A DNA stretch of 61,936 nucleotides from Ignavibacteriota bacterium (GCA_003162635.1 PMNE01000030.1:23920-85855); one strand, 5' to 3'. Positions 5,714-58,388 are shown, counted from the first letter of the stretch. A program made the numbers and translations. The notes: generated by a model not told the origin, from the letters alone.

Positions 5714-5735
5714 GGGTGTCCATCTGCTTCCTCTC

Positions 5736-5850: not shown

Positions 5851-5870
5851 TGAAAGAGTATGTCTTTGAT

Positions 5871-40074: not shown

Positions 40075-40364
40075 TTCCTTTCGTCGTCAATCGTGACGGA
40101 GATATCGCGGGCGACATTGCTGATGGTCGCCACCGGCACCTTCCCCTTCTTCTTGTTTTCCCGGTACACCGTGATGACCGCGTCCGGACAGACGAGGGCG
40201 CAGTTGATGCATCCCGTGCAGTTGTCCTTCACCAGTACTGCGTAGTGGTATCCCTGGGTGTTGATCTCCGGAGAAAGCGCCAGGCTCTCCTGTGGACACG
40301 CTTCGACGCACAAGGAACATCCTTTGCAGGTTTCAATGCTTAGCGTAACGCTGCCTCGTGCCAT
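40071..40364 (-). CDS. 2-oxoacid:ferredoxin oxidoreductase, delta (2x[4Fe-4S] ferredoxin) subunit
   Basis: [12 protein letters not shown] and [24 protein letters not shown]. Confidence 0.85.
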
Positions 40365-40379
40365 CGGAACTCCTCCTTC

Positions 40380-41714
40380 TTACAAGTAATGATGCTCTTT
40401 CGCAAACGCCTCAAGTTCCTCGCGAAACGATGGGTGGGCGATGCCGATCAGAAGTTCTGCGCGCTGTCGTATCGTCCGTCCGTGCAGGTTGACGATGCCA
40501 TGTTCGGTGATGACATAGTGGACGTCCCCCCTCGACGTTGTGATCCCCGCTCCTTCACGCACATGCGTGGTGATGCGCGATATCGTGCCCCCCTTCGCAG
40601 TCGAAGGAAGTGCGATAATCGGTTTCCCTCCCTCCGATTTTGCCGCCCCTCTCATGAAATCGACCTGCCCGCCGAACCCGCTGTAGAAGCGATACCCCAC
40701 CGAATCGGCCACCACCTGTCCCGTCAGATCGACCTCGATCGCCGAATTGACCGCGATCATATTGTTGTTCCGCGCAATGGTGAACGGATCGTTCGTAAAC
40801 TGGCTGGGGCGGAATTCAAAGGCGGGGTTGTTGTCAACGAAGTCGAACAGTTTCTGCGAGCCGAGAACGAACGATGTGACGGTCTTCCCGGGAAGGAGAG
40901 TCTTCCGCAGGTTCGTCACCACACCGTCCTCCATCAGCGGGATGATGCCGTCCGACACCATTTCAGAATGAACGCCGAGATCTTTCCGGTCTTTCAGATA
41001 CTGGACGGTCGCATCGGGGATGCGGCCGATGCCGAGCTGGAGCGTCGATCCGTCTTCAACCAGGCTGGCCACCTGCTGGCCGATCTGACGGTACACGTCC
41101 ATTTCTTCCGGGGTGACATCTCCCTCCAACTGTGGCAGCTCTTTCAAGGGGGCATCCGTATCCACACAATAGTCGATCCGGTTCATGTGGATGAAGCAGT
41201 CGCCCAGCGTTCGCGGCATGTGGGGGTTCACCTGGGCAACAACGATCTTTGCCACATCGGTCGCCGCCCTTGTACATTCCACCCCCACGCCGAAGCTGCA
41301 ATACCCGTGATCGTCCGGAGGGGAGACCTGGATGAGAGCGACCTCAATCGGATAGTGCCCACCGTAAAAGAGAGCGGGGATCTCCGAAAGGAAGATCGGC
41401 GTGAAATCGGCCCGTCCGTCGCAGACGGCCTGCCGCACGTTTTTGCCGATGAAGAAAGCATTGTGACGGAAGTGCCCGCTCATTTCGGCCCGGGCGTAGG
41501 CCGCTTCACCGACGCCGAGCAGATGACATACTTCGACATCGTGCAGCTCTTCCCATCGCTTGACCATTGCATCGACGAGAACAAGAGGAACGGCACAACC
41601 CGGATGAATGTAGACGCGATCACCCGACTGGATGACCGATACCGCTTCCGCCGCACTGACGAACTTTCTCCCATACTTTTTCGTCATCTCCGATATCATG
41701 GTATTGTCGTGCAT
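40380..41714 (-). CDS. Acetyl-CoA hydrolase/transferase-family CoA-transferase (4-hydroxybutyrate/butyryl-CoA:acetate type)
   Basis: About 444 aa. GDRVYIHPGCAVP near the N-terminus and GGQVDF motif. ATG at 41714 after AGGAG. Confidence 0.8.
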   Translation of the reverse strand: MHDNTMISEMTKKYGRKFVSAAEAVSVIQSGDRVYIHPGCAVPLVLVDAMVKRWEELHDVEVCHLLGVGEAAYARAEMSGHFRHNAFFIGKNVRQAVCDGRADFTPIFLSEIPALFYGGHYPIEVALIQVSPPDDHGYCSFGVGVECTRAATDVAKIVVAQVNPHMPRTLGDCFIHMNRIDYCVDTDAPLKELPQLEGDVTPEEMDVYRQIGQQVASLVEDGSTLQLGIGRIPDATVQYLKDRKDLGVHSEMVSDGIIPLMEDGVVTNLRKTLLPGKTVTSFVLGSQKLFDFVDNNPAFEFRPSQFTNDPFTIARNNNMIAVNSAIEVDLTGQVVADSVGYRFYSGFGGQVDFMRGAAKSEGGKPIIALPSTAKGGTISRITTHVREGAGITTSRGDVHYVITEHGIVNLHGRTIRQRAELLIGIAHPSFREELEAFAKEHHYL

Positions 41715-41742
41715 CGTAGCTCCTGGAACTCTCCGTGAATGC

Positions 41743-43071
41743 CTATTGCGTTTGATCGAGGGAAAAAGCAAGATCTCTGATAATGTCCTCCGCCTTTTCG
41801 AGACCGATGGCAAGGCGGATCCCGCCCGTATCGAGCCCCTTGGCGGTCTGTTCCTCCGGCGGGACGGCGGAGTGGGTCATGGACGACGGATGTTCAATGA
41901 GTGTTCTGATGTTCCCCAGACTGACCGCAAGGGTGATACAATATGCGTTCTGTGCAATGTGATTGATGAAGCGTTCTGCTCGGCCCAACGCTGTCCCTGC
42001 ATCCTGCCCCTTGACGACATAGTAGATCATCGCCCCGGGGGCAAAGTTCCCGTCATAGTCCACCATTTGCTTCCGCGCGATGGCCGCTTGTGCAAACCCC
42101 GGGAGCCCTGGATACTCAACACGCGCGATGTCAGGGCGCGATAAGAGAAATTCCGCAACGCGCTGCGCGGTCTGCTGCATCTGCCGCATCCTCAACGCCA
42201 GTGTGGGAAGTCCCTGGACCAACACCGGCCACGCGCTCTTCGCAGAGAGAACACCGCCGAAATCCTTCCGGAACAGCATGAGCATGTCCTTGCTCCACTT
42301 CGGACCGATCACCACCCCGCCGATGTCCGTACCAAAGCCGCCAATCCCTTTCGTAAGCGAATGGACGACGAAGTCGATCCCAAGGGCGAGCGGACGCTGG
42401 CAGAAGGGCGTGGCAAATGTGCTGTCAACAATGGTGTAGATCCTGTTCTTGGCAGAGCGCGAGGCGTTGATCGACGCCGCCAGTTCACTGATCGCCCGGA
42501 GATCGGTCAAGCGCAGCGTGGGATTCGCGGGAGATTCCATGTACAGCACCCGCGTGTTCTTTGTGATCGAACGCCGGACATCCTCAACATTCGAAAAGTC
42601 CACGAACTTCGTCGAGATCTTGAGCCGGGGATACCAATTCGTGAGAAGGGAGTACGTGCATCCGTAGATCGTTTTGTGCGCGATGATCTCGCTCCCTGCC
42701 CCCGTCAGGATACCGAGCACACCCGAGATCGCCGCCATGCCGCTGGCAAAGGTCACGGCGATATCTCCGTGCTCTGCAAGCGCAAGATTTTCCTCGAGCA
42801 TATCTTTATTCGGTTCGCCGAGACGATCGTAGATATAGATGGGGGCCTTCGCCTCGACCGTCACCTCATCGCTTGAGTGGGCAAATTCCGCAAATCCCTG
42901 GGCGCCGCGCCGGGCGCTGTCGAGACGGAATGTCGCGCTCGACGAAATAGGCGGGAGGAGGTGGTGACTGTAGTCCCACAGTGGGTCGTCCATCTGTCCG
43001 TAGATCAGATGGGCCTCTGTTGAATACCCCTTGCCTTTCGTCTTCTCGGGCCCGTCAGCGTGCCGCCCCAT
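41743..43071 (-). CDS. O-acetylhomoserine sulfhydrylase-like Cys/Met-metabolism PLP enzyme
   Basis: HSLTKGIGGFGTDIGG PLP-lysine region. The ATG at 43071 has AAGGAG 7 nt upstream; an alternative ATG at 43086 lacks an RBS. Confidence 0.75.
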   Translation of the reverse strand: MGRHADGPEKTKGKGYSTEAHLIYGQMDDPLWDYSHHLLPPISSSATFRLDSARRGAQGFAEFAHSSDEVTVEAKAPIYIYDRLGEPNKDMLEENLALAEHGDIAVTFASGMAAISGVLGILTGAGSEIIAHKTIYGCTYSLLTNWYPRLKISTKFVDFSNVEDVRRSITKNTRVLYMESPANPTLRLTDLRAISELAASINASRSAKNRIYTIVDSTFATPFCQRPLALGIDFVVHSLTKGIGGFGTDIGGVVIGPKWSKDMLMLFRKDFGGVLSAKSAWPVLVQGLPTLALRMRQMQQTAQRVAEFLLSRPDIARVEYPGLPGFAQAAIARKQMVDYDGNFAPGAMIYYVVKGQDAGTALGRAERFINHIAQNAYCITLAVSLGNIRTLIEHPSSMTHSAVPPEEQTAKGLDTGGIRLAIGLEKAEDIIRDLAFSLDQTQ

Positions 43072-43152
43072 GACAGTCTCCTTCATGTGATCGTTGAAAA
43101 GCTGCTCCCACCCGCCAATTTCATGGACGGCGGCGCGGGGAGAGTCACGCCC

Positions 43153-43404
43153 CTACGCAGCCGTGCAGGACGCCTGCTCGCTCCTGATGGCATCGACCGG
43201 GCAATCTTCCATTGCCTCGAGGATGAAATCTTCCTGCTCCGCTGTCTCCGGCTGTCGGGCAACGAAGTACGTGTTGGACCCCTTTTCAAAATCAAAACTG
43301 TCAGGCGCAACCGCCGCGCAATAGGCACATCCGTCGCATTCTTCCGTCGTGTAGTACTTTCCCGGCACGTTGCGGGGAAGTTTTCTCGGCTCCTCGGCTT
43401 CCAT
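43153..43404 (-). CDS. Small ferredoxin
   Basis: CDGCAYC...EDCP cluster motif. The ATG overlaps the ccmF stop by 1 nt (TGATG), with GGAGG upstream. Confidence 0.7.
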   Translation of the reverse strand: MEAEEPRKLPRNVPGKYYTTEECDGCAYCAAVAPDSFDFEKGSNTYFVARQPETAEQEDFILEAMEDCPVDAIRSEQASCTAA

Positions 43405-45626
43405 CACGCCTCCTTCGCTCGTTTAACGATTGCCACGATGAATCCCATCGTGAAGATGAGTGTTCCCGCCCACAAAAGAACGATCCACGGTTTGACGCTC
43501 GCGTCGACAAAAAGTGTTTCCGCACGCGTTTGCACCGGATCATTTCGTTGAACCTGCAGAGTAACCGACGACAATCCATCCCCCATGCCCACATGCATGC
43601 CAACGAGGGCCACATCGGCATGCATGAGTTTCGAAGGAACCGGCTTGTACTCCTGCCGTCCGTTCGTTGTCACAATGGACGGCACAATCGTTTCCGTCTC
43701 ACTCTTGCCCGTCAGTTCCAGAACTGCGCCGATTTCCATTCCCGCACCCGATGTCATCCCCTGCGCCGCATGGCCCCTCATATCAAACCTCGCGAACTTC
43801 GTCGTGATGCCTCCAAGAACGGCAGTCGCCCCCTTGTTCACGCTCGCCGTCTCCCCCCGGCCCTCTTCGCGTCCTTCCTCAAGGCTGACTGGAGAGATGT
43901 ACACGTCCCGACTGATGGTCGATGCGATGTCCGGTGTCCGCATGAGCCCGCGCTCTCCCGTATTCTCCATGATGGGAGAAAGGACAAACGCTCTTTCGCC
44001 TTCCCGCACCTCCACGGTAAACCTGAATTTGCCGTCCGGTTCCTGCGTGTGGCCCGTGTAGATCATCGTTCGACCGAGCACCGTCCGGGGAGCGTTAAGC
44101 GGGAGGCCGACATGCTCCGTCGTTTCCATCCTCCCCACAAGAACGATCCCCATGAGGACGAGAGCAATCCCGGCATGGGCGATTTTTCCCCCAATGAACC
44201 TGAAATTCCCCCTCACGATCTTGATCGCGGCATCGACATTGACAAAGAGTGCGACGAGGGAGGTCCAGACGAGCACCACGACCGAAGCATCACGCATGCC
44301 GAGGAGGAAGAGGATCACGACAATGACCGCGGCGGCGGCGCAATGGGGGAGCAGACGCCTCCATGTTCCTTTGACATCCTGTATCTCCCATTGCGTCTGC
44401 AGACTGACAGCAATCAGCACAACCAGAATGATCGCCGCGGGCAGCCCTGTGGCGTCATAGAAAGAGGGTTCCACACGGGTCGCGGAAAAGATCGGGAGAC
44501 TGGTGCCGAACAGGACAATGGCCGCAAGGATAAGAATCATCAGGGTGCCCGCGCCGAGCATCGTCTCCCTCGTCACCAGTCCGCTCTCCCCCTTTTCAGG
44601 ACGGAGGTCGTTCCACCGGAGAGCGAGGAGCGCTGCGCTCCCGAGTGTCAGAAGCGCAAGGACGCCCAGGAGAAGGGCAAAGACCACCGCACCGGGATCA
44701 GTGAAGGAATGGACCGAGGCATCGCCCAGGATGCCGCTGCGTGTCAGGAACGTGCTATAGAGGACAAGGAGAAACGTGACGAGCGCAAGAGCAAAGTTCG
44801 TTCTGACGTACTTGCCTGTCCGGAGCTGGGCAAGCAGCGTATGAAGGAAAGCGACAGCCGTCAGCCACGGAACGAGGGAGGAATTTTCCACGGGATCCCA
44901 TCCCCAGTACCCTCCCCAGCCGAGAACTCCGTACGCCCAATAAGCACCGAGCATCAGACCGAGTCCGAGAACGGATGCGGCAAACAGGATCCATGGAAAA
45001 GTTTGTGCGGGGAGGATGGTATAGTTCTTTTGCCACAAGCCGGCGATCGCCATGCTGAAGGGTACTGCCAACGCGGCAAAGCCAAGAAAGAGGACGGGCG
45101 GATGGATCACCATCCAGAGATTCTGCAACAGGGGGTTGAGGCCGCGGCCGTCGACGGGAAGGGTTGTGGGTCCCTGCGGGAACATTTCCCACACCGATCG
45201 AAACGGCGATTTTGCTTCGATCAATACGAGGAGGAGAGTCAGCACTCCTCCATAGACCGCCATGATTGCCGCTTCACTCCCCCGTTTTCGCGTCCACGCA
45301 CGCAGGGCGATGCCGATGCCTGCTGCGCAGAGAGCCCAGAACAGGAAGCTCCCTTCCTGTCCGGCATAGAAGCAAGAGATCAGATATTGGAGGGGGAGGG
45401 ATCGGTCGCTGTAGCTATAGACGTATCCGTTGGAGAAATCATGTCGAAGAAAAAGAACGAGGAGCAACAGGGAAGCAAGCCCGATGCAGAAGGCGCCCGC
45501 CAGGAACATCCGCCGCGGGTGGAGAAGCGAGCCCGCACCGGTCATCGCAACCCGGCTGTAGAGAACCGTCGACGCGGCCACGGCAAGCAACGCCAAGAGT
45601 ACCACTATCTGCCCAAGAACAGTCAT
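43404..45626 (-). CDS. ccmF: Cytochrome c haem lyase CcmF/NrfE family
   Basis: WWD-type motif WGGYWGWDPVENSSLVPW. N-terminal YSDRSLPLQYLISCFYAGQEGSFLFW. About 15 TM segments. ATG at 45626 after GGGAGGTG. Confidence 0.85.
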   Translation of the reverse strand: MTVLGQIVVLLALLAVAASTVLYSRVAMTGAGSLLHPRRMFLAGAFCIGLASLLLLVLFLRHDFSNGYVYSYSDRSLPLQYLISCFYAGQEGSFLFWALCAAGIGIALRAWTRKRGSEAAIMAVYGGVLTLLLVLIEAKSPFRSVWEMFPQGPTTLPVDGRGLNPLLQNLWMVIHPPVLFLGFAALAVPFSMAIAGLWQKNYTILPAQTFPWILFAASVLGLGLMLGAYWAYGVLGWGGYWGWDPVENSSLVPWLTAVAFLHTLLAQLRTGKYVRTNFALALVTFLLVLYSTFLTRSGILGDASVHSFTDPGAVVFALLLGVLALLTLGSAALLALRWNDLRPEKGESGLVTRETMLGAGTLMILILAAIVLFGTSLPIFSATRVEPSFYDATGLPAAIILVVLIAVSLQTQWEIQDVKGTWRRLLPHCAAAAVIVVILFLLGMRDASVVVLVWTSLVALFVNVDAAIKIVRGNFRFIGGKIAHAGIALVLMGIVLVGRMETTEHVGLPLNAPRTVLGRTMIYTGHTQEPDGKFRFTVEVREGERAFVLSPIMENTGERGLMRTPDIASTISRDVYISPVSLEEGREEGRGETASVNKGATAVLGGITTKFARFDMRGHAAQGMTSGAGMEIGAVLELTGKSETETIVPSIVTTNGRQEYKPVPSKLMHADVALVGMHVGMGDGLSSVTLQVQRNDPVQTRAETLFVDASVKPWIVLLWAGTLIFTMGFIVAIVKRAKEA

Positions 45627-45661
45627 TGCACCTCCCAGGAAGACCCACACGACTTTCTCGT

Positions 45662-45677
45662 TTCAACATGCGTGCCA
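45662..45677 (-). promoter_or_regulatory. Sigma54-type promoter candidate upstream of ccmF
   Basis: Minus strand TGGCAC-GCATG-TTGAA. Perfect -24 element and spacing; the -12 element is TTGAA instead of TTGCW. Lies 36 nt upstream of the ccmF ATG. Confidence 0.45.
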
Positions 45678-45894: not shown

Positions 45895-46239
45895 TCACCC
45901 CATATGGAGGCGGTGCTTGAGCTGAGTCTCTTCGATAACCTCGACGATCATCGGGAAGTATCTGTCGAGAGCGCATGCCACGTCGTCCCGCAGCCGGCAG
46001 GACCCGTCGCCCGATTGGTGCGTGCAGACGCGGCAGACTTTCTCACGCAACTGCTCTTCGTAGGGTTCGATCGAAGAGCTGAACGCCGCATTGATCGCTT
46101 CGATGATCTGCGGGAATGAGGTCCGCAGCGCACATTCCCGGCCGTCGCCAATCCTACACTCTCCAAGACCGTCCCCATCCACGCACTTCGCACAGATCCT
46201 TTTCTCGATGGCTTCCCAGTACTCCACTTCCGTCGTCAT
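45895..46239 (-). CDS. Cytoplasmic Cys-rich protein with an internal tandem duplication (2 x CxxC-Xn-C-X6-CAL)
   Basis: ATG at 46239 after GAGGGAG. Repeats ICAKCVDGDGLGECRIGDGRECALRTSFPQIIEAI and VCRVCTHQSGDGSCRLRDDVACALDRYFPMIVEVI. Confidence 0.55.
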   Translation of the reverse strand: MTTEVEYWEAIEKRICAKCVDGDGLGECRIGDGRECALRTSFPQIIEAINAAFSSSIEPYEEQLREKVCRVCTHQSGDGSCRLRDDVACALDRYFPMIVEVIEETQLKHRLHMG

Positions 46240-46387: not shown

Positions 46388-47521
46388 TTATCGCATCGGA
46401 ACAGACCCGCCGAGCTCTGCGCGAAGATCGATCTGTCCGTTTATGTGTTTCGCTTTGTTGAGAATGTTCCCGGAAGCATCGGTGACGTCGCCGTGGCAAT
46501 CGACACAGTTGGCGAGTTCCGACAGGATATGGCCTTTGGGCACGTAAACACCCGGGGAGCCGCCATGGCAGCTCGAGCACTGTCCCTCGGCACTGCCTGC
46601 CACCCAGCTCGGGGACGCGTGAGCCCCCGTCATGACTGAATCAGTGTACACATATTGTTGCGCAAATGCCGATGCCGTCGCCTTCCGGAGTACCCAGTTT
46701 CCATGGCAGTACGTGCCGGCGCATGTCGGCGACGAATAAAGGGGGAGGGGAATGTTCGACCCGTTTCCCGTCACGAGACGCGCCAACGTATCCTTGAACA
46801 TGACGGCGGCAAGCCCGCCCGCATACTTGCGCTGAAAAGTCAGCAGATGACCAGGCTCGTAAATACTCGACGGAACATCATGGCATTCCTGGCACTTCAC
46901 TCCCTTCGCAGACCCGAGTGAATCGGCCCGCAGGTGGATCTGGTGCGCACCGACACCGAGAACCGTCGCCGCCGTATCGCGGAAAACGCTCTTGGGCGGC
47001 GCAGCGGAGAGCAGATATGCAATTCCCTGGAGATTTGCAGCGGCCCTGAAATCGCCATGACACGTGTTGCACGATTCGGGCGACTTCAGGTTCCCGTTGG
47101 CATCGGCGTGGCAGGAGGACGACTCACATCCCACGGTAAGAATCGCCCCGCCGGTGTAGTTCTGACCGTGGCAGGTCTGGCATTGTTGCAACGGGTAGTT
47201 CATGGCGCGCACATAATCCGTATGGCGTCCTCCCGCCTTGACGAACTGTACATCGTGTGGATAGGCGGGATGACACGTGAAGCACGACACCCCGCTGGAA
47301 CCTCCGCTAAAATCGGCAGCATGGCACGTCTTGCAGGCCGTGTCATCCCACCCCGCCTTCAGCAGAGAGCGTCCGTGAAAATTGTCAGAGGAACTTGTTC
47401 CCCATCCGGCTTCGTGCACTTTCACGCCCGACGCCACTGGTGCCGGCAGATCCGTTTTCAGCCTGGCGCAGGAAACTGCCAGCAGCGCACAAGTCAGGAG
47501 GAGGAGGATTCTCTGTGTCAT
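46388..47521 (-). CDS. Multihaem c-type cytochrome lipoprotein (7 CxxCH + 2 CxxxxCH)
   Basis: MTQRILLLLTCALLAVSC lipobox-like signal. CxxCH motifs CKTCH, CFTCH, CQTCH, CNTCH, CQECH, CSSCH, CVDCH, plus CESSSCH and CAGTYCH. Confidence 0.85.
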   Translation of the reverse strand: MTQRILLLLTCALLAVSCARLKTDLPAPVASGVKVHEAGWGTSSSDNFHGRSLLKAGWDDTACKTCHAADFSGGSSGVSCFTCHPAYPHDVQFVKAGGRHTDYVRAMNYPLQQCQTCHGQNYTGGAILTVGCESSSCHADANGNLKSPESCNTCHGDFRAAANLQGIAYLLSAAPPKSVFRDTAATVLGVGAHQIHLRADSLGSAKGVKCQECHDVPSSIYEPGHLLTFQRKYAGGLAAVMFKDTLARLVTGNGSNIPLPLYSSPTCAGTYCHGNWVLRKATASAFAQQYVYTDSVMTGAHASPSWVAGSAEGQCSSCHGGSPGVYVPKGHILSELANCVDCHGDVTDASGNILNKAKHINGQIDLRAELGGSVPMR

Positions 47522-47528
47522 GGTCGTC

Positions 47529-48749
47529 TCACCCTCTCTTTGGTCCATGGCAATATCCGCAGAAACCCTTCCCGGCGACCCCCCCCGGATGGGCATTCAT
47601 GTCGGTGTGGCAATTGTAGCAGGTCGCGCCGGGGTCGGTATGCCACGAGCCATGATCCTGCGAGCCGGCAAAGCCCGCGGGATGAGTCTTTGGATCCGTA
47701 CCGCGAATGCCGTCTGCATCGACATGGCACGTGATGCACACCGGGTCTCCCCCGCGTGCATCATGACAGGTCATGCAGCTTTCAATATCGCGCCGAGCCA
47801 ACTCCGCATGGCGTCCGCCCCCGGAGCCGACTCCAAGAGTCGTGAACCCCGATCCGATATGCGAAGCGGGGACCTGGCCCGGGGTCAGGCGATCGCCCTC
47901 GGCATGGCAACGCGCGCAGAAATCCTGCGCCGAATGGCACGTGAAGCAGTCAGATGACTTTGCCCGCGCGTCGATTCCGTGCGTGTAGCGGTAGTTCATG
48001 GAGTGCACGGTTTGCAGGGTCATCTTTTTCGGTCCCTCTTTTCCCGCATTGTTTCGCGGCGATGGCTCGGTCATCAGAGCGCTATTCCCCAACTGGAGGA
48101 GTTCTCCGCCGGCATGACACCCTGCACAGAAATCCTGGGAGTGGCACGTGACGCAGCGTACCTCCAGCGATCCGAGGCGCGTGAATCTCTTGTGGTCCTT
48201 CTTGAAATCCGCCACCAGGTGATCGTCGGGGATCAGATTGACGAAATTTGTATGGCATGCTTCACAGGTCTTCGTCGCCCGGACGTCATTATGACACGTC
48301 GTGCAGGTCGCCATGACGGGCATATTCGCCGGCCCGGCGTAGTCCGCCTTTTCCAGCCCCTGATGGCACGTCGTGCATGCGACGTCCGTCATCTCTATAT
48401 GCTGCTTGTGGGAGAACGTGATATCGCGCTCCGGTGCAGCCGCGGCGTGCATGTTCGTGGTGTCCTTATGACAGTACGCGCATGCGTTGTTGATCTGTTC
48501 TTCATGACATCCGACGCAGCTTTCATGGTTGCTCCGGAGATTGTCCGAAGCTTTCGTACTGGTCGAAGCCCCCTTGTGGCAGTCAATGCATGCAGCGCCC
48601 AGTTCCGTGACGTGGTGTGCATGCGAGAATTTCAGCGAACTCTTGTCGTCGTTGTCCGGCCAGCCCGCCGGGGCGCTCACTTTGCGAGCCACTGCTGTCA
48701 CCAGTGTGGCAATAAGGGCCACCGCGATAAAACCGTATCGGTATTTCAT
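47529..48749 (-). CDS. 14-haem c-type cytochrome (c7/c3-like repeats), periplasmic
   Basis: 14 CxxCH motifs in 406 aa. N-terminal hydrophobic signal/anchor MKYRYGFIAVALIATLVTAVA. FSHxxH...CxxCH units. GAGGAGG RBS. The ATG overlaps the upstream stop (TGATG). Confidence 0.9.
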   Translation of the reverse strand: MKYRYGFIAVALIATLVTAVARKVSAPAGWPDNDDKSSLKFSHAHHVTELGAACIDCHKGASTSTKASDNLRSNHESCVGCHEEQINNACAYCHKDTTNMHAAAAPERDITFSHKQHIEMTDVACTTCHQGLEKADYAGPANMPVMATCTTCHNDVRATKTCEACHTNFVNLIPDDHLVADFKKDHKRFTRLGSLEVRCVTCHSQDFCAGCHAGGELLQLGNSALMTEPSPRNNAGKEGPKKMTLQTVHSMNYRYTHGIDARAKSSDCFTCHSAQDFCARCHAEGDRLTPGQVPASHIGSGFTTLGVGSGGGRHAELARRDIESCMTCHDARGGDPVCITCHVDADGIRGTDPKTHPAGFAGSQDHGSWHTDPGATCYNCHTDMNAHPGGVAGKGFCGYCHGPKRG

Positions 48750-50056
48750 CAGTGGGCCTCCTCGGAAAAAAGTGACAGGCGTTCGGCAAACCAATAGAGA
48801 AGTCGGACCTGTAGGCGCATGTCGTGATCATAGAGCCTGTTTTTCATCCATTGCCCCTGGACGTCGAAGGAGAAGCTTCGGAGCGGGCGGACGGTGGCAC
48901 CCAGAAGAACGGCAAGCGCATTATCCCTGGGCGAATCAGCGCTCAGGCGATAGGAGACCAGAGAGACGCCAAGAGACGGCAGCAGCGTTCGATCGAAGAA
49001 CGGATACGTCCCCTCCGCATTGAACGACGTCAGCTCGCCGGCAAACCCGCTGCTTCCGGTGTATGTCACACTCCCGTAACCGCCGTTGACGCCCAGTGTC
49101 CATCGCATACTGTTGTCATCGGTGTAGCTCACGGATCCGAGCTTCCCGAACACGCGCACCATCGGTGTGACAATGTATTCGACCCCGCCCTCAATTTCGG
49201 TGGTGGAGCTCGCTGCAAACGCCGAGAAGATGGAATTGAAGGCGATCTGGGGTTTCCGGTAGAAGACGTCCCCCGTGACATCCAACGATGGCATCACGTG
49301 GACGCGAACGCCCCCCTCGCCCCTGGATGTTTCGGAGAAGTTGAAATCGTAATCGTACCTGCCATAGGCCGTCAGGAGGTCGCCGCACAGGTAGGAGGCA
49401 TCAACGCTTCCGAGCTGGCGGGCCAAAGACGTCCCGGAGATATAGTATGGCACAGGAATGCCAAGGGAGTCTCGTGCGCGTGTCGTCCAGTAAGGATCGT
49501 ACTCCTCGTGCCGGTTCATATAGCTCAGGCCGATACGGGCTTCGGGCACAAGCGTGGTAACGACCTGCCCGCCCACATTGATGTTATCGTGCCAATCGCT
49601 CCGCACCCCCGTGTACTCCTCCTTCACCGTCGACCCACCGTATCCGGTGACGGTGATTTTATCATCCAGAAGGCGTGCCCGGGCCGTGAGGCCGTCGATA
49701 TTCCCGTTCCCGACCCCTGCGAACACCGCTTGGCGGCCGAGACTCAGGTCGAGGGTCCTGCTGAAGCCGGTCCACGTCGCATAGAGGTTGTAGAATCGGA
49801 CGCGGCCCACGTCCCCGAACGAATTTGCTCCGTTCATCACACCCTGCGCGAAGGTGTGGAATACAAAATCGCCCTGAGCGACCGACAACTGCACGGTCTG
49901 ATATGCGCGCAGGTACGCCTTTGAGACGCCGACGGTATCGTACTGCTCCCAGGAATAGAACGACGTCGTGAAACGTCCATTAACGAGCTGGGCCGGGAGC
50001 GATGCGACGGCCGTCACCAGCAAAAGCGCCAGAAGAAACAAGCGTTTCTCGTTCAT
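48749..50056 (-). CDS. Porin-like outer-membrane beta-barrel candidate
   Basis: Signal peptide MNEKRLFLLALLLVTAVASLPAQ. No Cys or haem motifs. Many short segments with alternating hydrophobic residues rich in Y/G/S/T (VRFYNLYATWTG, IGLSYMNRH, YGRYDYDFNFS, RLQVRLLYWF). Confidence 0.6.
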   Translation of the reverse strand: MNEKRLFLLALLLVTAVASLPAQLVNGRFTTSFYSWEQYDTVGVSKAYLRAYQTVQLSVAQGDFVFHTFAQGVMNGANSFGDVGRVRFYNLYATWTGFSRTLDLSLGRQAVFAGVGNGNIDGLTARARLLDDKITVTGYGGSTVKEEYTGVRSDWHDNINVGGQVVTTLVPEARIGLSYMNRHEEYDPYWTTRARDSLGIPVPYYISGTSLARQLGSVDASYLCGDLLTAYGRYDYDFNFSETSRGEGGVRVHVMPSLDVTGDVFYRKPQIAFNSIFSAFAASSTTEIEGGVEYIVTPMVRVFGKLGSVSYTDDNSMRWTLGVNGGYGSVTYTGSSGFAGELTSFNAEGTYPFFDRTLLPSLGVSLVSYRLSADSPRDNALAVLLGATVRPLRSFSFDVQGQWMKNRLYDHDMRLQVRLLYWFAERLSLFSEEAH

Positions 50057-50156: not shown

Positions 50157-50705
50157 CTACTTCTTTGGTCCGCCATGTTCAATCTTCGCCCAGGCCTCTG
50201 CAAATTTGAATCCCTTGAACGAGGGGCTTCCGGAATTGTGGCACGTCTCGCACACTTTCTTGACATCGTCGCCGACGACAAGACCGGCAGCTTTTGCCTT
50301 TGCCTTGCTTTCGTCATCCTTCTTGTTGTGAAGACCGATAAAACCGGACGCAGCGCCATGGCATGCTTCGCAGGTGACGCCTTCTTCCATCTTGTAGGAG
50401 ACATCGACATTCTTTGCTGTCCCGCCGCCGGACACATGGCACTTCAGGCATTCGGGGCTCTCAGAGGCGGGCTTCGTCAGACCCCTCTTCTTCGCAATCT
50501 CTTCTGCTGCCTTCGACTTCAATGTTTCAAAAGCCATTGCATGGGGGCTCTTTTCCCACACGGCATAGGCAAGCCCGCCCATCTTCTCGATTTTGTGGCA
50601 GGCCATGCATCTCTTGACCCCGACAAACTTGTTCTCCGCAGTTGTCACGCCGCTCACACAGGCCACTGCCAGAGCGAGAGCAACGATTCCATGGATGGTT
50701 TTCAT
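50157..50705 (-). CDS. Periplasmic tetrahaem c-type cytochrome
   Basis: CMACH, CLKCH, CEACH, CETCH. Signal MKTIHGIVALALAVAC. GAAGGAGGA RBS. Confidence 0.85.
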   Translation of the reverse strand: MKTIHGIVALALAVACVSGVTTAENKFVGVKRCMACHKIEKMGGLAYAVWEKSPHAMAFETLKSKAAEEIAKKRGLTKPASESPECLKCHVSGGGTAKNVDVSYKMEEGVTCEACHGAASGFIGLHNKKDDESKAKAKAAGLVVGDDVKKVCETCHNSGSPSFKGFKFAEAWAKIEHGGPKK

Positions 50706-50773: not shown

Positions 50774-52225
50774 TCAACGTTTCTCGATCCGGCGGATGTA
50801 GAGATACAACGATGCCGCCAATATACTGATTATCAGGGTCGAAATGCCAAGGCCTATCCTTCGAAAGATGTATTCATCCAGCGCTCCCTGAGCTTCGATC
50901 GCAACGGAAGCCGACACCACAAGACCCTTGTCGACCGCAGTCGCAAACCGGGGAGCGTTGAATGCGTGAACGGTGGTCCGGGCTTCGAGTCGTGCCTGAT
51001 GGATATCCCGCAGCCGGTACTTGGCCTCCGAGATCTCCATCCCTTCCTGTTCTGCCTGCGCCACAAGTGCCTGTGCGCGCTGCTCCGACAACTCCAGGCT
51101 GTCAATCTGCAGGCGCATAACCTGCGCGGCAGAGTATCCCTGCGGATTGTCCGTCGGGGTATGGCAGCGGCTGCACACTGCATCGGACGACACGCCAAGC
51201 AGCGTGCTGGTTGCCGGCTCAATGTCATGATTGCCGTGGCACGTTTCGCACTCGGGGAGATGCCTTTCGTCGAACGCCTGCTTGTGCGGGCTTGCCGCAA
51301 AGAGATCGGCATTCAATGAATGGCAAATACCGCAGACCTTCGACACAGACTCGATGTCGGGCGGCGCCGCGCCGTGATTGCCATGGCAGCTATTGCATGC
51401 CGGGGCACCGAGATCGTTCTTCTTGAGAAGTGCAATGCCGTGCACGCTTCGCGTGAATTTTTCGTATTGATCCGTTGGAATGCCATACGGCTTCATGTAC
51501 GCCGCGTTGCTGTGACAGTTCGCGCATGTGGACGGCAGGTTCACCGGGAATACCTTTGAACGAACGTCTTTGACGGGAAGGATGCCGTGCGTTCCGTGGC
51601 AGCTCACGCACTCTGCCACTTTCGCATCGCCACGCGCGTTCTTCATGCCGTGCACGCTCGTCCGGTATTTCTCCCTCTGGTCGACAGGGAGGGCGGGATT
51701 ATATGCCCGCATATACGTCGCGTTGCTGTGACACGAGGAACAGGTCGCAACGATCTTCAGCGGGGAGACGGGTGAAGCAGGATCACGGACGGGCACGATG
51801 CCGTGCGCGCCATGACAGGTCGTGCACTGCACGATACGTTCCTTCCCGGAGATTGATTTCTGTCCGTGCACGCTCTCCTTGAGAAGCGCGAACTGGTTGG
51901 CAGGGAGCACGACATGATAGCCGGCCATCCGAACGGAATCCGCGTGGCACGCAGCGCATCGCGCGGAAATGACGTCGCCCTTCGGAACCCCGATGAAGTT
52001 CCCCTCTTTGTTCATTGCTTTCTCGGGGTCGTCCGTTGTCGCGTCTCCTCCGTGGCATCCGGCGCAGGTGACACCCGCACGGTGGTGAATGTCATGCGCG
52101 AATTGCGTCGAGGGTTTGTCGGCGATTGCCGTATGGCATTCGAAACACTTGTCCGCGCCCATTCCCACCCGCGTCCCCGCAAGGATGAGTGCCGCGACCG
52201 CGAGTCTCCGTATGCGCAGGATCAT
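50774..52225 (-). CDS. 11-haem c-type cytochrome with C-terminal coiled-coil and TM anchor (cytochrome c subunit of the Rieske/cyt b complex)
   Basis: 11 CxxCH motifs. Repeated module SVHG-X10-12-CxxCHGxHG. C-terminal [25 protein letters not shown] overlap with the cytochrome b gene. Confidence 0.88.
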
Positions 52226-53301
52226 AGAACCCAGCCCAGGATGGTGAAGGCGATGATATACATGACAGCACAGAGTCCCGCGTAGGAGAGTGCGCGGTTG
52301 CGTTCACCCCGTGCGCTCCTGCGATCCCAGAACGGGATCAGCAGCCACAGGAGTCCGGCGAGGGAGAACACAAAGACGCCGAGAACTTCACCGTCGATAA
52401 ACCCTATACGCGCCGGAATGAACTTCAGGGTCTGGAACATGAACAGAAAGTACCACTCCGGTCTGATGCCCGACGGCGCCGAGGCAAACAGATCGGCTTT
52501 CTTTCCCAACTCCCACGGGAAGAAGACGGCCAGGATCGCCAGCAGGTTCAGGACAATGAGCCAGAGGAGAAGATCGCGGAGGAGGAAGTTCGGAAAGAAG
52601 GGCATCGTCTTTCGGCCATTCGCAGGGAGAGCGGCCACGTGCAAGGGTTCGCTCATCCCTTGCCGCTGGACCAGCAGCAGATGAATTCCGAGCGCCACCG
52701 TAAAGATGCCTGGGAGCACCGCAACGTGAAAACCGAAGAACCGGGAAAGCGTCGCTCCGGTCACGTCCTCCCCCCCGCGGAGGAAAATCATCAGCGGCTT
52801 GCCGACAACGGGAATCACGCCCGCGATGTCCGTCCCCACTTTCGTTGCAAAGAATGCAAGTTCGTTCCACGGCAACAGGTATCCGCTAAACCCGAACCCG
52901 AGCGCAAGGAAGAACATGACCATCCCGGTCATCCACGTCAGCTCCCGCGGAGCGCGATATGACCGCTCGAAAAACACGCTGAACATGTGGACGAGCACTG
53001 CCAGGATGAACAGATTCGCTGACCAACTGTGAATCGACCGGATCAGCCAGCCGAACGACACTTTCGAAGAGATGAACTGGATGCTTTCGAAGGCCAGTTG
53101 CTCGCTCCCCTTGTAGTATAAGAGAAGGAGAATTCCCGTGACCACCTGAATCAGGAACAGGAAAAGCGATACACCTCCGAAATAGTACCAGATCGAATGC
53201 CGGTGCACCGGGACGTATTTCTTCCCCATGAACTCAACGAGGTTGGCGAGCTGGAGGCGCTCGTCAAGCCACGCGTAGAGTCTTTGCCAGGCACGTTGCA
53301 C
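52222..53301 (-). CDS. Cytochrome b (fused b6 + subunit IV type) of a Rieske/cyt b complex
   Basis: Motifs [35 protein letters not shown] and [13 protein letters not shown] start after GAGGA. Confidence 0.9.
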
Positions 53302-53309
53302 GGAGATCC

Positions 53310-53765
53310 TCAGACGTTTTTAGAAACAAACACATCACCCCCCTGAATCGATACCCGGTACGGATCGAGCGGACGCGGAGGCGGTCCAGCGATGTTGCGC
53401 CCGTTCAGATCATATCTACCGTTATGGCAGGCACACCAGATCGAACCAAAGTCCTTTCTGTATTGCACAGTGCAGTCCAGGTGTGTGCACGTCGCGGAAA
53501 ATGCACGAACCTCGCCCGCCGCTGTTCGCACGACGATAACAGGTTTGTTCCCGAAGCGCACAATCACGCCGCTCTCCTTCGGGAGAGAACTCAGCGTTCC
53601 CACCTTGACGCTCGTGACTTCCACCTCCGCCTGTTTGGGAGGACGAAGGTATGAGAATAACGGATACGCGATAGCTGCGAGCCACGCGACGAATCCCCCC
53701 GCGAGGATGTACCCCAGGAAGGATCGACGACTCGTCTGCTGCTTGAGTTGGGGAGGATACTCCAC
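53310..53765 (-). CDS. Rieske [2Fe-2S] protein with Tat-type signal
   Basis: [11 protein letters not shown] twin-arginine motif. Cluster boxes CTHLDCTV and [12 protein letters not shown] start after AAGGA. Confidence 0.9.
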
Positions 53766-53913: not shown

Positions 53914-55407
53914 TTACTGAGCACTGTGGCAATCACTGCAGTTTGTTTCCTTCCACGCATCACCGATGTCCACGGGATGCTTGTACTCCACGCCGTCAAG
54001 CGACAGGCGAAGCTTGTCGTTGGACAACTCCTCCGCAAGAATCGTATGACAGGTATTACAGTCCCGGGACAACACTTTCCCTTCTTCCGAAAGGTGTTTC
54101 CCGTCGTGACACCGGAAGCAGCCCGGATAGTACATATGCCCGATATTGTCCGGAAATCTCCTCCAGCTCACCTGCATCTCGGGGAAGTAATTACGGGCGT
54201 AGATCTTCCTGACCTCGCCGATCGCCTGCTCGATCGCCGCGTGCTGCGTTGCGGCCACCTGGGGATACTGTGTACGATACGATTCTTCGATGAACGCGCC
54301 GATACTGTCCAGCGCCCCCTGTTGCGTCGCGTACGGCATTTCCAACGCTTTCACGGCGAGGCTCTTGATCGACGGGAGAGCGGGGTCCACCCATCCAAGT
54401 GCCATAACGTGATCAACTGATCGCGCAGGCGGATGGTAAATGTGGGTCGGACGGTTATGACAGTCGATGCAGTCCATTTTCCTTTTCGGCAGCTTCGCGA
54501 CTTCCTCGTCGCTGACCGGGTTATCGCTGGAACGGTAGACGGACACGCTCCCATCGGGTCGACGCACCTGCACCCACGGAATCACCTGACGAGTCGAGTC
54601 GGCAGGCGCATACGTCACCTGATTCGCGATGTTCATGTGCCAGTGGATTCCCGATGTCGGCCCCGCTTCACTATTGCCCCCTCCGATTTTCACCAGGAGG
54701 TTCAGACTCCATCGTGTATTGTGCTCGTCCTGCAGAAAGTATGTGTTGACGAGAAGCTTTTCACTATAGAAATGCATCGGCCAGTGGCATTGCTCGCAGG
54801 TTTCCTGCGCAGGGCGGAGATTTTCGATCGGGGTCGGGATTGGCCGTGGATATTTGTTGAAGAGCGTTGCATAGACCTGATATGTTCCCGAAAGCTTGGA
54901 ACGCACGAACCAGTCAGCACCCGGCCCGATGTGACACTTGACGCACCCAACGCGTGCGTGCGCCGAATATTGGTACGCAGTGTACTCCGGAGCCATAACC
55001 TTATGACATGTTTCCCCGCAGAACTGATCCGAATCGGTATGTTCGTATGCCTGATAGCTTCCGAAGGCCGAGAAGAGCAGGAGCAGAATCAATCCTCCGG
55101 CCACATAGAGGAAGGCCCTCCGGTGCCGCGGATCGTTCATGTCGACCCTGGGCAGGTGCATTTCCGACGGCCTCCCTGCGCGGAGTCTCCGGTGTTCGCG
55201 AATGACGCCGACCAGCGCCAGCAGAAGGCCGAGGACAAGAATCGCCGGCAGCAAGACAAAAGCGATCACCCCCATGTACGGTTTCGGCGCCGCGGAGAGC
55301 GATTCCAGAAGCATCAGAAAGAGCACGAGCCCGAAACTCACCGCAGCGACGGCGCCGCCGGCAAGGGTCAGCGAATTGTAAAATGACGAGGGTAATGCTC
55401 GTTTCAC
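53914..55407 (-). CDS. ImcH-like inner-membrane multihaem cytochrome (3 TM + 7 haem motifs, NapC/NirT-related)
   Basis: Three N-terminal TM segments. CGETCH (CX3CH) plus CVKCH, CEQCH, CIDCH, CFRCH, CNTCH, CSDCH. GTGA overlap with the upstream gene. Confidence 0.8.
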   Translation of the reverse strand: MKRALPSSFYNSLTLAGGAVAAVSFGLVLFLMLLESLSAAPKPYMGVIAFVLLPAILVLGLLLALVGVIREHRRLRAGRPSEMHLPRVDMNDPRHRRAFLYVAGGLILLLLFSAFGSYQAYEHTDSDQFCGETCHKVMAPEYTAYQYSAHARVGCVKCHIGPGADWFVRSKLSGTYQVYATLFNKYPRPIPTPIENLRPAQETCEQCHWPMHFYSEKLLVNTYFLQDEHNTRWSLNLLVKIGGGNSEAGPTSGIHWHMNIANQVTYAPADSTRQVIPWVQVRRPDGSVSVYRSSDNPVSDEEVAKLPKRKMDCIDCHNRPTHIYHPPARSVDHVMALGWVDPALPSIKSLAVKALEMPYATQQGALDSIGAFIEESYRTQYPQVAATQHAAIEQAIGEVRKIYARNYFPEMQVSWRRFPDNIGHMYYPGCFRCHDGKHLSEEGKVLSRDCNTCHTILAEELSNDKLRLSLDGVEYKHPVDIGDAWKETNCSDCHSAQ

Positions 55408-57569
55408 AAGAGACTTTCCTCCGTTCCTTCCTGTTCGGTCTGCGTCTCCCGGCGCAATTGTTCAAGCTCCAGCGGATGCTCCTCTTCCATCTCCCCTTCC
55501 GTCAGTGTTCCCTTCCAGAAAGCAAGATTGATCGGGTATGTGTCTGGATTGAAGATGACAAAGTACATGTGCCAGACCAGAATGGCAAGTGTTGCCAGCC
55601 AGGCCTCGTAGTAATGGATGGTCCGGGCGATATCCCAACCGAGTTTCGTCAGCAGACCAAGGAATGTGTTATCGAACCACATGATCACTCCCGTCGCTGC
55701 CATCACCACGACACCCCAGACAAGGGCCCAATATTCGCTCTTTTCAATGTAGCTAAACCGGCCGAATTGAGGTTTCTCTTTCGCGAAGCCGAGGTTGTAC
55801 TTCAAGACCCCAAACGCATCAGCAATATCCTGCGGCACCGGTGCCAGGTCGCGGAGAAGCTGCCTGCCTCGGCGTGTACAGAAGACATAGAAGAGGTGAT
55901 ATAGACCTGCCAGCACCAGCACCACGCCGGCGCATCGGTGAATGATACCGCGGGCGGCAAAAGCAAACGGGATGACGTTCCGGATCGGCACGACCCACCA
56001 GGCATCGGGGAATTTCAGCGCGAACCCGGTGAGCGCCAGCAGAAAGAAGCTGACGAGAAGAAGGCCATGTTGGATCCTCTCCCCGAGTGACATGCGCAAG
56101 TACAATCGGTGACCCGGCCTGTGCGGCGGCAAACCACCGCGACGCATCAGCAACCGGCGCTTCGACTTCCAGACGAAATCGAGCGCGTTGTGGACCGCCA
56201 TCCCCCCGATCACGACCGCAATCATGATGAAGTACGTCGAGGAGACGAGGTAAAGAACCCGGTCGTTCCCCGAACTTGCCAGGACGTGGACATTCCCTTT
56301 CGTAAAATTCTCGTTGGCGCCGGGGTGGCATGTCCCGCACGTCTTCGCAAGGTTCTTTTTGTTCACGCGTGAGGTTGAATCACTCGACGCCTTGATGTCA
56401 TGAACGCCGTGGCAGCTCGCGCAATTGGCGACTTCGACATTTCCCGCCCGTCCCGCGAGACCGTGGTAGCTGTCGGCAAAACTCTGGAAGCGATCGCTCG
56501 CAAGCCCGTACTTTTCGGTCAGCTTTACCGACGCGTGGCAGGGAGAACAGACCTGGGCCGAGACGTTCTTCGCCGCAACAGGCGAGGCGGCATCCTTGGG
56601 GGAGAGGATGTTGTGCTCGCCGTGACAGTCCGTGCAGGTGGCCGACGCCGTGACGCCCCGCGCAAACGACGTCCCGTGGATACTCTCTTCATACTGCTGC
56701 AGTATCTCTCCATGGCAGGCGCCGCATGTCCCGGCGATGTGTGCACGGGAAACCCGGGAATCGGGACGTGATCCTTTCTTCAGGTCGTGGCTCCCGTGGC
56801 AGTCAATGCAGGTCGCAGCCGCGTCATTGCCGTTCTTCACGGCCCGTCCATGGACGCTCCCTTCATAGCTCGACACGAAGGCGACCGACGGTCCCACCCG
56901 CGCACGAACATCAGGGTTATCGACATGACACCGGAGGCATTCCACCTGAATGTTCTTCCTGTTGGTACGTGACGAATCGTCGCCGGAGGGAAGAACGTCA
57001 TGCGCGCCGTGACAATCGATGCACGTCGGCGCCGCATTCACCCCGGCTGCCGCCGCAAGACCGTGGTCGGAGGCGGAATATTCCGCAGCCGCTGCGCCAT
57101 GACAGCGAATGCACGACTCACGCACAAGCGTGTTCTTTGCCTCTGCCCCCCCGCCGGAAATCCTCTCGATCGCATGCTTCGTGTGGCAATCGGCGCACGT
57201 CAATGCCCCTTGCGCTCCGTGCATCACGCCATGGACGCTCTTTCCGAATTTTTCTGTCTGCTTGTCGCTGTGGCAGGTGAGGCACTGCACGGGATGGATC
57301 TTCTTCGCGTGGGGAAGCTCAGCGGGGCTGAAACCGAGGTGACATGCGACGCAGGCAACTTCGCCATGGGCCGACTTCTTGAAGGAGAGGGGATCAACAT
57401 GCAGGGACACCGTTTTTCCCCTGCGCACCATGGTGGCTCCCTGCTCCCCGTGACATGCAAGACATTCGTCGTTCCCCTGCGCCCGGAGGCAGCACGGCAG
57501 CGCCGCCATGAGCACGGCCGCACATCCAAGCATCAACCCGATTCTCTGTCCTCGTGACCGAGTCATCAT
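55404..57569 (-). CDS. CbcL-like fusion: 13-haem periplasmic c-type cytochrome domain + FdnI/HydC-type dihaem cytochrome b membrane domain
   Basis: 13 CxxCH motifs. The C-terminal approximately 270 aa carry TM segments and conserved His (ERIQHGLLLVSFF, IIHRCAGVVL, ARTIHYYEAW, LVWHMYFV). Start re-called at MMTRSRGQRIGLMLGCAAVLMAALP (signal peptide). The alternative ATG at 57647 would bury the signal peptide. Confidence 0.82.
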   Translation of the reverse strand: MMTRSRGQRIGLMLGCAAVLMAALPCCLRAQGNDECLACHGEQGATMVRRGKTVSLHVDPLSFKKSAHGEVACVACHLGFSPAELPHAKKIHPVQCLTCHSDKQTEKFGKSVHGVMHGAQGALTCADCHTKHAIERISGGGAEAKNTLVRESCIRCHGAAAAEYSASDHGLAAAAGVNAAPTCIDCHGAHDVLPSGDDSSRTNRKNIQVECLRCHVDNPDVRARVGPSVAFVSSYEGSVHGRAVKNGNDAAATCIDCHGSHDLKKGSRPDSRVSRAHIAGTCGACHGEILQQYEESIHGTSFARGVTASATCTDCHGEHNILSPKDAASPVAAKNVSAQVCSPCHASVKLTEKYGLASDRFQSFADSYHGLAGRAGNVEVANCASCHGVHDIKASSDSTSRVNKKNLAKTCGTCHPGANENFTKGNVHVLASSGNDRVLYLVSSTYFIMIAVVIGGMAVHNALDFVWKSKRRLLMRRGGLPPHRPGHRLYLRMSLGERIQHGLLLVSFFLLALTGFALKFPDAWWVVPIRNVIPFAFAARGIIHRCAGVVLVLAGLYHLFYVFCTRRGRQLLRDLAPVPQDIADAFGVLKYNLGFAKEKPQFGRFSYIEKSEYWALVWGVVVMAATGVIMWFDNTFLGLLTKLGWDIARTIHYYEAWLATLAILVWHMYFVIFNPDTYPINLAFWKGTLTEGEMEEEHPLELEQLRRETQTEQEGTEESLL

Positions 57570-57815
57570 TGCGAGTATCAAAGGAACTTGGTCCGAACCA
57601 TGAGCCAGATCATCCCAAAGCGCGCCTAAAAACGGGTCAATGAGCATGCCAAGAACAGGGTATTGAATTTGTAGAGAATTGCCACATTTGCGATTGAGAG
57701 TGGGGTTTTATTCTCAAAACTGCAAGAGCAGGGTGTGCCTCTTTTCAGGCATGGGAATGGAAAGAGAAAAAATGGGTAAGAAAGGGGAAAAGCGGAATAG
57801 TATTCAGCGATGAGA

Positions 57816-58372: not shown

Positions 58373-58388
58373 TTCAAGATATGTGCCA
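58373..58388 (-). promoter_or_regulatory. Sigma54-type promoter candidate upstream of the REC gene (and possibly the multihaem operon)
   Basis: Minus strand TGGCAC-ATATC-TTGAA, the same non-canonical -12 element as at 45662-45677. Confidence 0.4.

Follow-up and report, generated by a model that had tools for sequence, protein, structure and literature searches.

The genes described here lie in a stretch of 61,936 nucleotides (nt) from an Ignavibacteriota bacterium (GCA_003162635.1 PMNE01000030.1:23920-85855). The whole stretch was analyzed and is called the window; all positions are counted in it. Between positions 46388 and 50056 three neighboring genes on the minus strand encode a predicted outer-membrane barrel and two predicted multihaem cytochromes, which together resemble a porin-cytochrome (Pcc) module. 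In the 5' to 3' direction of the minus strand these genes are:

48749-50056, minus strand: porin-like outer-membrane beta-barrel, predicted from an AlphaFold2 (AF2) model and Foldseek; 435 amino acids (aa), signal peptide, no haem motif
47529-48749, minus strand: predicted periplasmic 14-haem c-type cytochrome; 406 aa, 14 CXXCH motifs, Sec signal, no lipobox
46388-47521, minus strand: lipoprotein multihaem cytochrome, candidate outer-surface part; 377 aa, lipobox, seven CXXCH and two CX4CH motifs

A previous sequence-only reading of the window had proposed these coordinates and this order. It had also proposed a 14-haem cytochrome whose start overlaps the stop of the barrel gene, and nine haems and a lipobox-like signal for the third protein. 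All of these proposals agree with the present analysis.

The product of 48749-50056 has an N-terminal signal peptide, which is its sole hydrophobic helix in a hydropathy scan and which is probably cleaved between A22 and Q23. At this predicted signal-peptidase site A22 is nearly invariant and Q23 invariant in the barrel family. An N-terminal Gln occurs on many secreted Bacteroidota proteins; the site fits this pattern and is in this way consistent with the phylum assignment. Longer upstream forms of the open reading frames (ORFs) with 562 aa and 421 aa were considered and rejected on the basis of homologue lengths and signal peptides.

The sequence-only reading had described a barrel-like protein without Cys and had raised the question of whether the product might turn out to be soluble or alpha-helical. 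The AF2 model, computed from an alignment of 41 barrel-family sequences (alignment A1), is all-beta. It has a predicted local distance difference test score (pLDDT) of 76 and a predicted template modelling score (pTM) of 0.64, and it shows an N-terminal helix followed by 24 beta-strands with no other notable helices. DSSP assigns the same 24 strands; two of them are short (residues 189-194 and 201-206) and may form a loop hairpin, which leaves 22-24. A Foldseek search of the model against the PDB returned only outer-membrane barrels with a probability of 1.0, namely AlgE, the 24-strand ushers FimD/PapC, OmpM1 and general porins, at template modelling scores of ~0.45-0.50 and with no specific relative. 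For the first product we predict a secreted barrel in the outer membrane, free of haem and with about 22-24 beta-strands. The signal peptide and the barrel fold of the earlier reading were retained, but the absence of Cys was not: a direct count found one, C221. The relatives have 0-4 Cys each, and these are not conserved.

The same reading had noted that the C-terminal YWF is followed by 12 more residues and had called this atypical. The residues are indeed YWF plus AERLSLFSEEAH, but the ending is less odd than this suggests. The last strand of the AF2 model comprises residues 412-427 (to L427) and takes in YWFAERL, and the tail YWFAERLSLF is kept across the barrel family. Members with 35-42% identity stop exactly at the aligned Phe (...YWFSDRLSWF, ...SYYLSERLNIF). 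Because these distant relatives end at that Phe, the predicted beta-signal is ...ERLSLF430, and only the 5-residue tail SEEAH is extra; it is an extension of the close clade with the consensus xxExx. From these comparisons the C-terminal extension appears to be a family trait rather than an anomaly.

A protein database search with the barrel found 226 relatives at 90% clustering, all of them annotated as hypothetical protein and labelled Bacteroidota or Ignavibacteriae. A profile search of 1.84 billion representatives showed the family to be compact, with 488 clusters at 50% identity; the complete members in the list of the 150 best matches mostly have ~380-470 aa. The family includes records labelled Melioribacteraceae and Ignavibacteriaceae, and a search from a Melioribacteraceae barrel found only metagenome-assembled genomes (MAGs) and one isolate-like record among the matches listed. 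When the 41 aligned members were compared with Pfam, 11 gave weak matches to LptD and two to Porin_O_P, together with echoes of OMP_b-brl; none of the 41 matched the MtrB/PioB model.

The second gene shares the A of its ATG with the TGA of the barrel gene, and the same 1-nt overlap of stop and start occurs in close relatives. Its product contains exactly 14 CXXCH motifs and 28 Cys, and hydropathy analysis shows only the N-terminal signal segment. Pfam recognizes multihaem domains of the c7, c3 and MtrC types, while a sequence search of the PDB gave only echoes of c7-type domains. The number of haem sites is a stable property of this protein: 14 CXXCH motifs are present in 71 of 74 relatives, most of which have ~400-420 aa, and all 14 are invariant in an alignment of 43 sequences. 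For the second product we predict a soluble cytochrome that is secreted and has 14 sites for c-type haem.

The third protein starts with MTQRILLLLTCALLAVS-C19, a signal with the lipobox LLAVS-C19, and is otherwise without hydrophobic segments in the hydropathy scan. Its nine predicted haem sites consist of seven CXXCH motifs and two CX4CH motifs, CESSSCH and CAGTYCH, and the CxxxxCH/CxxCH domain model TIGR01904 matches above its cut-off (7.8e-9). The PDB sequence search found no relative of this protein. From the sequence it is predicted to be a lipoprotein cytochrome with nine haem sites. The lipobox is conserved in 61 of 72 relatives and is followed by a conserved motif, C-S-[ED]-L-K-x-D-L-P(-x-P), at residues 19-29 (loci L001-L083); the version in the window is C-A-R-L-K-T-D-L-P. 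Lipoprotein surface-export signals have been described in Bacteroidota, and the motif after the Cys could be such a sorting signal. The CX4CH at residue 267 is invariant in 59 of 59 lipoprotein cytochromes and forms, with six CXXCH motifs, the conserved core of the protein. Around this core the protein varies, with 276-494 aa (and one outlier of 722 aa), 5-11 CXXCH motifs and 1-3 atypical motifs. In some loci the gene is duplicated or trailed by an extra cytochrome.

To place the three genes in context the species representatives of GTDB were scanned for the barrel gene. It is encoded in 146 genomes, and the best 80 of these 146 loci were examined. All 80 are from MAGs, and in nearly every case the label is Ignavibacteriota, Ignavibacteriae or Bacteroidota; Ignavibacterium album and Melioribacter roseus are not among them. 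The closest species is only 69% identical to the window in the barrel. Synteny was counted with tblastn and the three window proteins over 81 loci (81 GTDB records). The order barrel, 14-haem cytochrome, lipoprotein cytochrome on one strand is present in every locus that extends far enough: the 14-haem gene is next after the barrel in 79 of the 81 and the lipoprotein gene is present in 70, with almost all misses at contig ends. The linkage between barrel and cytochrome is unbroken down to 35% identity. Since the same three-gene order occurs in every related locus that is long enough, the arrangement is far beyond chance. These comparisons of sequence show that the three genes are either coupled in translation or direct neighbors, and that throughout the phylum they are strictly inherited together. 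The synteny in relatives, which the sequence-only reading had proposed as a check, was thus found, and its suggestion of a Pcc-like arrangement of the Omb/Oma/Omc type is supported by the barrel fold, the lipobox, the synteny and a published Pcc cluster from Ignavibacterium album.

This cluster was described in I. album JCM 16511 by Shi, Fredrickson and Zachara in 2014 (Front Microbiol 5:657, PMC4245776). In their description IALB_1839 is porin-like, and IALB_1838 is a periplasmic protein of 400 aa with 14 haem motifs, stated to be the largest periplasmic Pcc cytochrome known. IALB_1837 is listed as a cytochrome of the outer membrane that has atypical motifs, and a further periplasmic cytochrome, IALB_1840, is associated with the cluster. 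Compared by this published description, the window has the same parts and counts, with 406 aa and 14 haems against 400 aa and 14. The atypical CX(3-15)CH motifs of the outer-membrane cytochrome correspond to the two CX4CH motifs in the window, and the extra upstream cytochrome IALB_1840 has a positional counterpart in a tetrahaem cytochrome at 50157-50705. Both clusters belong to the same phylum, but the window represents another, uncultured lineage from peat. A further difference is that the available part of the 2014 paper describes no linked Rieske/cytochrome b, ImcH-like, CbcL-like or CcmF-like genes, all of which occur near the triad. In the paper on the I. album genome, neither cytochrome c maturation nor multihaem proteins are discussed. 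Porin-cytochrome clusters called 'Geobacter-like' or 'OmbB-like' have also been reported for Melioribacter roseus and for Ignavibacteria MAGs (Fortney 2018, He 2019, Arbour 2020; PMC6137239, PMC7399161, PMC6344600); the term OmbB-like for the Ignavibacteria porins comes from published HMM and BLAST analyses. The triad type is therefore already described from genomes in Ignavibacterium and Melioribacter, and the window adds another example.

The general Pcc architecture (Liu 2014/Shi 2014) consists of a haem-free barrel, a periplasmic multihaem cytochrome with 5-14 motifs and a lipoprotein multihaem cytochrome, and all three are found in the triad. OmbB-OmaB-OmcB of Geobacter sulfurreducens, like the ExtABCD-type systems, has the same parts encoded side by side, and its pathway follows the same logic, with quinol oxidases of the ImcH and CbcL types. 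The haem numbers differ, with 8 in OmaB and 12 in OmcB against 14 and 9 in the window. Pcc porins have 18-22 predicted strands, and the AF2 model of the window barrel has 22-24. The Shewanella MtrCAB, MtoAB and PioAB systems share the barrel-sheathed periplasmic multihaem cytochrome, with or without a lipoprotein cytochrome at the surface. However, the DmsE/MtrA decahaem model TIGR03508 scores only 15.9 bits against a cut-off of 192.2, there are 14 haems instead of 10, and MtrB-type barrels are much larger (28 predicted strands) than the 435-aa barrel. Because neither MtrB/PioB matches and the MtrA/DmsE score is far below cut-off, the triad, as judged from these models, is not an Mtr-family system. 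According to Shi et al. (PMC4245776) the proteins of I. album fall into none of the five phylogenetic groups of Pcc, and identities among Pcc proteins are as low as 8-13%. Because of this placement, the term Pcc denotes a class of architecture here and not a family of demonstrated homology.

A haem-rich island extends over 43.4-57.6 kb on the minus strand, and the triad forms its distal part. The other genes of this island are, in 5' to 3' order:

55404-57647, minus strand: CbcL/MtoC/MtrH-like fusion; periplasmic domain with 13 CXXCH plus cytochrome b561 of the HydC/FdnI type, PF01292 1.8e-14
53914-55407, minus strand: ImcH-like inner-membrane cytochrome; three transmembrane (TM) helices, PF03264 2.7e-11 (NapC/NirT), CGETCH (CX3CH) followed by six CXXCH
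53310-53765, minus strand: Rieske [2Fe-2S] protein with N-terminal anchor; PF00355 6.1e-13, CTHLDC...CACH motif
52222-53301, minus strand: cytochrome b of the bc/b6f type; PF00033 6e-49, PF00032 1.5e-11
50774-52225, minus strand: 11-haem cytochrome with C-terminal membrane anchor; 11 CXXCH, TM 453-471, translationally coupled to cytochrome b
50157-50705, minus strand: periplasmic tetrahaem cytochrome, c554-like; PF13435 3.9e-19, four CXXCH, directly upstream of the barrel gene
45895-46239, minus strand: small Cys-rich ORF; 114 aa from ATG, eight Cys in CxxC...C patterns, between the lipoprotein gene and a sigma-54-type element (below)
43404-45650, minus strand: divergent CcmF/NrfE-like haem lyase; 748 aa, PF01578 1e-30, PF16327 7.5e-20

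This order recurs in L082, a locus with 49% identity, and in most loci. The ImcH-like protein shares all published features of Geobacter ImcH, which has three N-terminal TM helices, a NapC/NirT-homologous region and seven haem motifs, the first of them CX3CH (PMC4251993). The CbcL-like fusion, with its TM segments in the C-terminal half, has the features described for the CbcL/MtoC/MtrH family (PMC6295460). The 11-haem gene is conserved beside the Rieske and cytochrome b genes. This group of three (50774-53765) is located between the ImcH-like and the Pcc genes in about half of the related loci; the available parts of the Pcc papers make no mention of a bc-type complex inside a porin-cytochrome island. 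Counted over 82 loci, the tetrahaem gene is upstream of the barrel in 74 and the CcmF-like gene adjoins the triad in 51. The tetrahaem protein contains the sequence LAVAC and was considered as a lipoprotein; this was rejected, since the Cys is conserved in only three of 73 sequences. The Cys-rich ORF has no Pfam match and is kept only in the eight closest loci.

The island proteins scanned against Pfam and NCBIfam are all electron carriers or haem lyases. No catalytic reductase, whether a molybdopterin enzyme, one of the NrfA type with CXXCK or similar, was found among them, and haem motifs are absent from those larger ORFs that were checked in the rest of the window. Weak NCBIfam echoes of ExtN/ExtO from a selenite/tellurite reduction operon were seen with the lipoprotein and the 11-haem protein, far below the cut-off. 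In the haem lyase the Pfam domains Cytochrom_C_asm and CcmF_C score well above their cut-offs, while the subfamily models do not reach theirs (TIGR00353, 247 bits against 569; TIGR03145, 246 against 927). For this reason the protein is classified, from its sequence, as a divergent member of the CcmF/NrfE superfamily. It has ~160 extra C-terminal residues that end in a TM helix, and in L082 it is represented by two ORFs.

Candidate regulatory elements and regulator genes of the island are:

59862-61286, minus strand: PAS histidine kinase (Pfam)
58505-59869, minus strand: NtrC-type sigma-54 activator (Pfam)
58374-58388, minus strand: sigma-54-like element TGGCACATATCTTGA, just downstream of the activator and the kinase
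45663-45677, minus strand: sigma-54-type -24/-12 element TGGCACGCATGTTGA, 12 nt upstream of the CcmF-like ORF

In the window alone the sigma-54 pattern occurs 4 times where 4.3 matches are expected, which is not significant. The element before the lyase gene is credible not by this count but by its exact conservation at one position in related loci. A -24/-12 match is present at the position of 45663-45677 in 20 of 20 loci of the close clade (L001-L024), with an identical 15-mer in 17 of the 20, and the interval between the lipoprotein gene and ccmF accounts for 26 of the 44 matches on the plus strand in 926 kb of loci. This conserved element before the ORF implies that the CcmF-like gene has a putative sigma-54 promoter of its own, and its true start codon is then probably the ATG at about 45626. 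The kinase and the activator are candidate regulators of the island. The same pair is present upstream in locus L001, which also carries an element similar to that at 58374-58388, TGGCACAACTCTTGA. From the two elements of the window, transcription would start near 45651 and 58362. A scan of the island for sigma-70 promoters and terminators gave nothing usable above background.

Some further observations concern the flanks. A small receiver-like ORF at 57816-58250, with a weak match to Response_reg, heads the cytochrome island after the 58374-58388 element. Downstream of the island, 38980-43407 (minus strand) encodes a ferredoxin, a Cys/Met pyridoxal phosphate (PLP) enzyme, an acetyl-CoA hydrolase/transferase and subunits of a 2-oxoacid:ferredoxin oxidoreductase. 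Their order matches that in L001, except that the acetyl-CoA hydrolase/transferase is absent there. Because this downstream gene order is shared, the whole region is collinear with L001, which is 59% identical. Far from the island, an S-adenosylmethionine (SAM) riboswitch occupies 5734-5852 on the minus strand (RF00162, 76 bits, E 3.8e-16). It is directly upstream of an ORF at 4488-5723, the N-terminus of which resembles a Cys/Met-metabolism PLP enzyme.

We consider it likely that the triad is a Pcc-type electron conduit across the outer membrane of an uncultured Ignavibacteriota bacterium from peat. By analogy with the known Mtr and Pcc systems, the protein with 14 haems would thread the barrel from the periplasm and form an insulated haem chain across the outer membrane. 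In MtrCAB-type chains each haem accounts for roughly 9 Å, so that a chain of 14 could reach across the membrane and through some of the periplasm. The chain would pass electrons to the lipid-anchored 9-haem cytochrome at the cell surface, which may reduce insoluble or macromolecular acceptors such as Fe(III) or Mn(IV) minerals or humic quinones in peat. Judging from the neighborhood, electrons from the menaquinol pool would enter via the ImcH-like, the CbcL-like and the Rieske/cytochrome b plus 11-haem modules, and the tetrahaem c554-like cytochrome would carry them over the periplasm. The adjacent CcmF/NrfE-like lyase probably matures the cytochromes of the island.

Several points weigh against this assignment. 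The formation of a complex, the exposure of the lipoprotein at the surface and the direction of electron flow are all things which we infer. Neither Pfam nor NCBIfam has a family for the window barrel, the PDB sequence search found no relative of it, and MtrB is not among its top 50 Foldseek fold matches. The AF2 model of the 14-haem protein from the 43-sequence alignment (pLDDT 57, pTM 0.37) is too poor for a judgement on a rod shape. The cluster does not come up in the multi-omics paper on M. roseus, and our literature search found no experimental work on it in the phylum. The evidence for expression has its own limits. DNA of the window is present in peat and permafrost metagenomes, and metatranscriptome contigs from wetland and peat, with at least 99% identity, span the whole 43-58 kb stretch. 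This coverage indicates that the island is apparently transcribed in situ, albeit from assembled contigs that hold no strand information and may include DNA carry-over.

With respect to direction, flow from quinol outward to Fe(III) or humics is favoured, because the surface cytochrome is conserved, the island includes an ImcH-like gene and a relative reduces Fe(III). ImcH homologues have so far been reported only from Fe(III) reducers (PMC6295460), and the relative that reduces Fe(III) is the cultured M. roseus. Electrons could also move inward or in both directions through the conduit, as has been proposed for MtoAB, PioAB and PCC3; Fe(II), a partner cell or reduced humics would then supply electrons to the periplasm and the quinone pool. 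We judge this unlikely. The island does contain a Rieske/cytochrome b complex, and such complexes take part in the reverse electron flow of iron oxidisers. Porin-cytochrome systems can also be bidirectional (PMC8258643), and homologues of CbcL/MtoC/MtrH occur in Fe(III) reducers and Fe(II) oxidisers alike (PMC6295460). However, the Fe(II)-oxidising Mto and Pio systems are typically without an extracellular cytochrome, which is present and conserved here. The ImcH-like gene and the physiology of M. roseus also argue against inward flow, and the nearby genes for pyruvate:ferredoxin oxidoreductase and acetyl-CoA transferase point to a heterotroph.

Two other explanations concern the parts themselves. 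The barrel and the 14-haem cytochrome might alone form an MtoAB-like conduit, with the lipoprotein either a separate, exchangeable terminal reductase or facing the periplasm from the inner leaflet of the outer membrane. Shi et al. suggest that periplasmic cytochromes with 12-14 haems could span the membrane alone (PMC4245776), and the lipoprotein gene is indeed the variable part of the triad while barrel and 14-haem cytochrome are far more constant. Against this, the lipoprotein gene is directly downstream in every locus that is long enough, and its product keeps the core of six CXXCH and one CX4CH together with the possible sorting signal after the Cys, which makes a two-part conduit improbable in our view. 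An even more remote explanation is that the barrel is an ordinary porin or substrate channel that is merely co-located with cytochromes for the respiration of soluble nitrite, arsenate, selenite or sulfur species. The barrel is without a family assignment and its fold matches only generic porins and exporters, and the ExtN/ExtO echoes, faint as they are, would agree with such a function. But the barrel gene shares a 1-nt overlap of stop and start with the cytochrome gene and stays linked to it without a break in 81 loci down to 35% identity, and neither the scanned island proteins nor the larger ORFs elsewhere in the window provide a catalytic reductase or further haem motifs, respectively. 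This explanation is therefore very improbable, and a conduit made of all three proteins remains the preferred interpretation.

A broader proposal, which we put forward only tentatively and think more doubtful than the conduit itself, is that the triad is only the outer end of a phylum-wide, self-contained island leading from quinol to the surface. Besides the CbcL-like, ImcH-like, Rieske/cytochrome b plus 11-haem, tetrahaem and Pcc modules, this island would include its own sigma-54-controlled CcmF/NrfE-like lyase dedicated to the CX4CH site and perhaps to the CX3CH of the ImcH-like protein. The idea of a dedicated lyase comes from the fact that its gene follows that of a cytochrome with an invariant CX4CH site. 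Analogous cases are NrfEFG, which acts on CXXCK, and the dedicated CcsA isoenzymes of Wolinella; we know of no lyase that is specific for CX3-4CH motifs.

For annotation, the results give a sharper rule for a barrel that is a hypothetical protein in every database record seen, and they leave the Pcc concept unchanged. Over the 81 loci the features fixed in the clade are the 14 haems, the barrel, the lipobox with SELKxDLP, one CX4CH and the linked CcmF-like lyase, while the surface cytochrome varies. These conserved features are a list that can be tested in culturable relatives. Peat, permafrost, aquifers and anode biofilms are places where Ignavibacteriota commonly occur, and there extracellular electron transfer to iron and humics competes with methanogenesis. 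The window would provide, from peat, an apparently transcribed and complete example of a conduit for such transfer.

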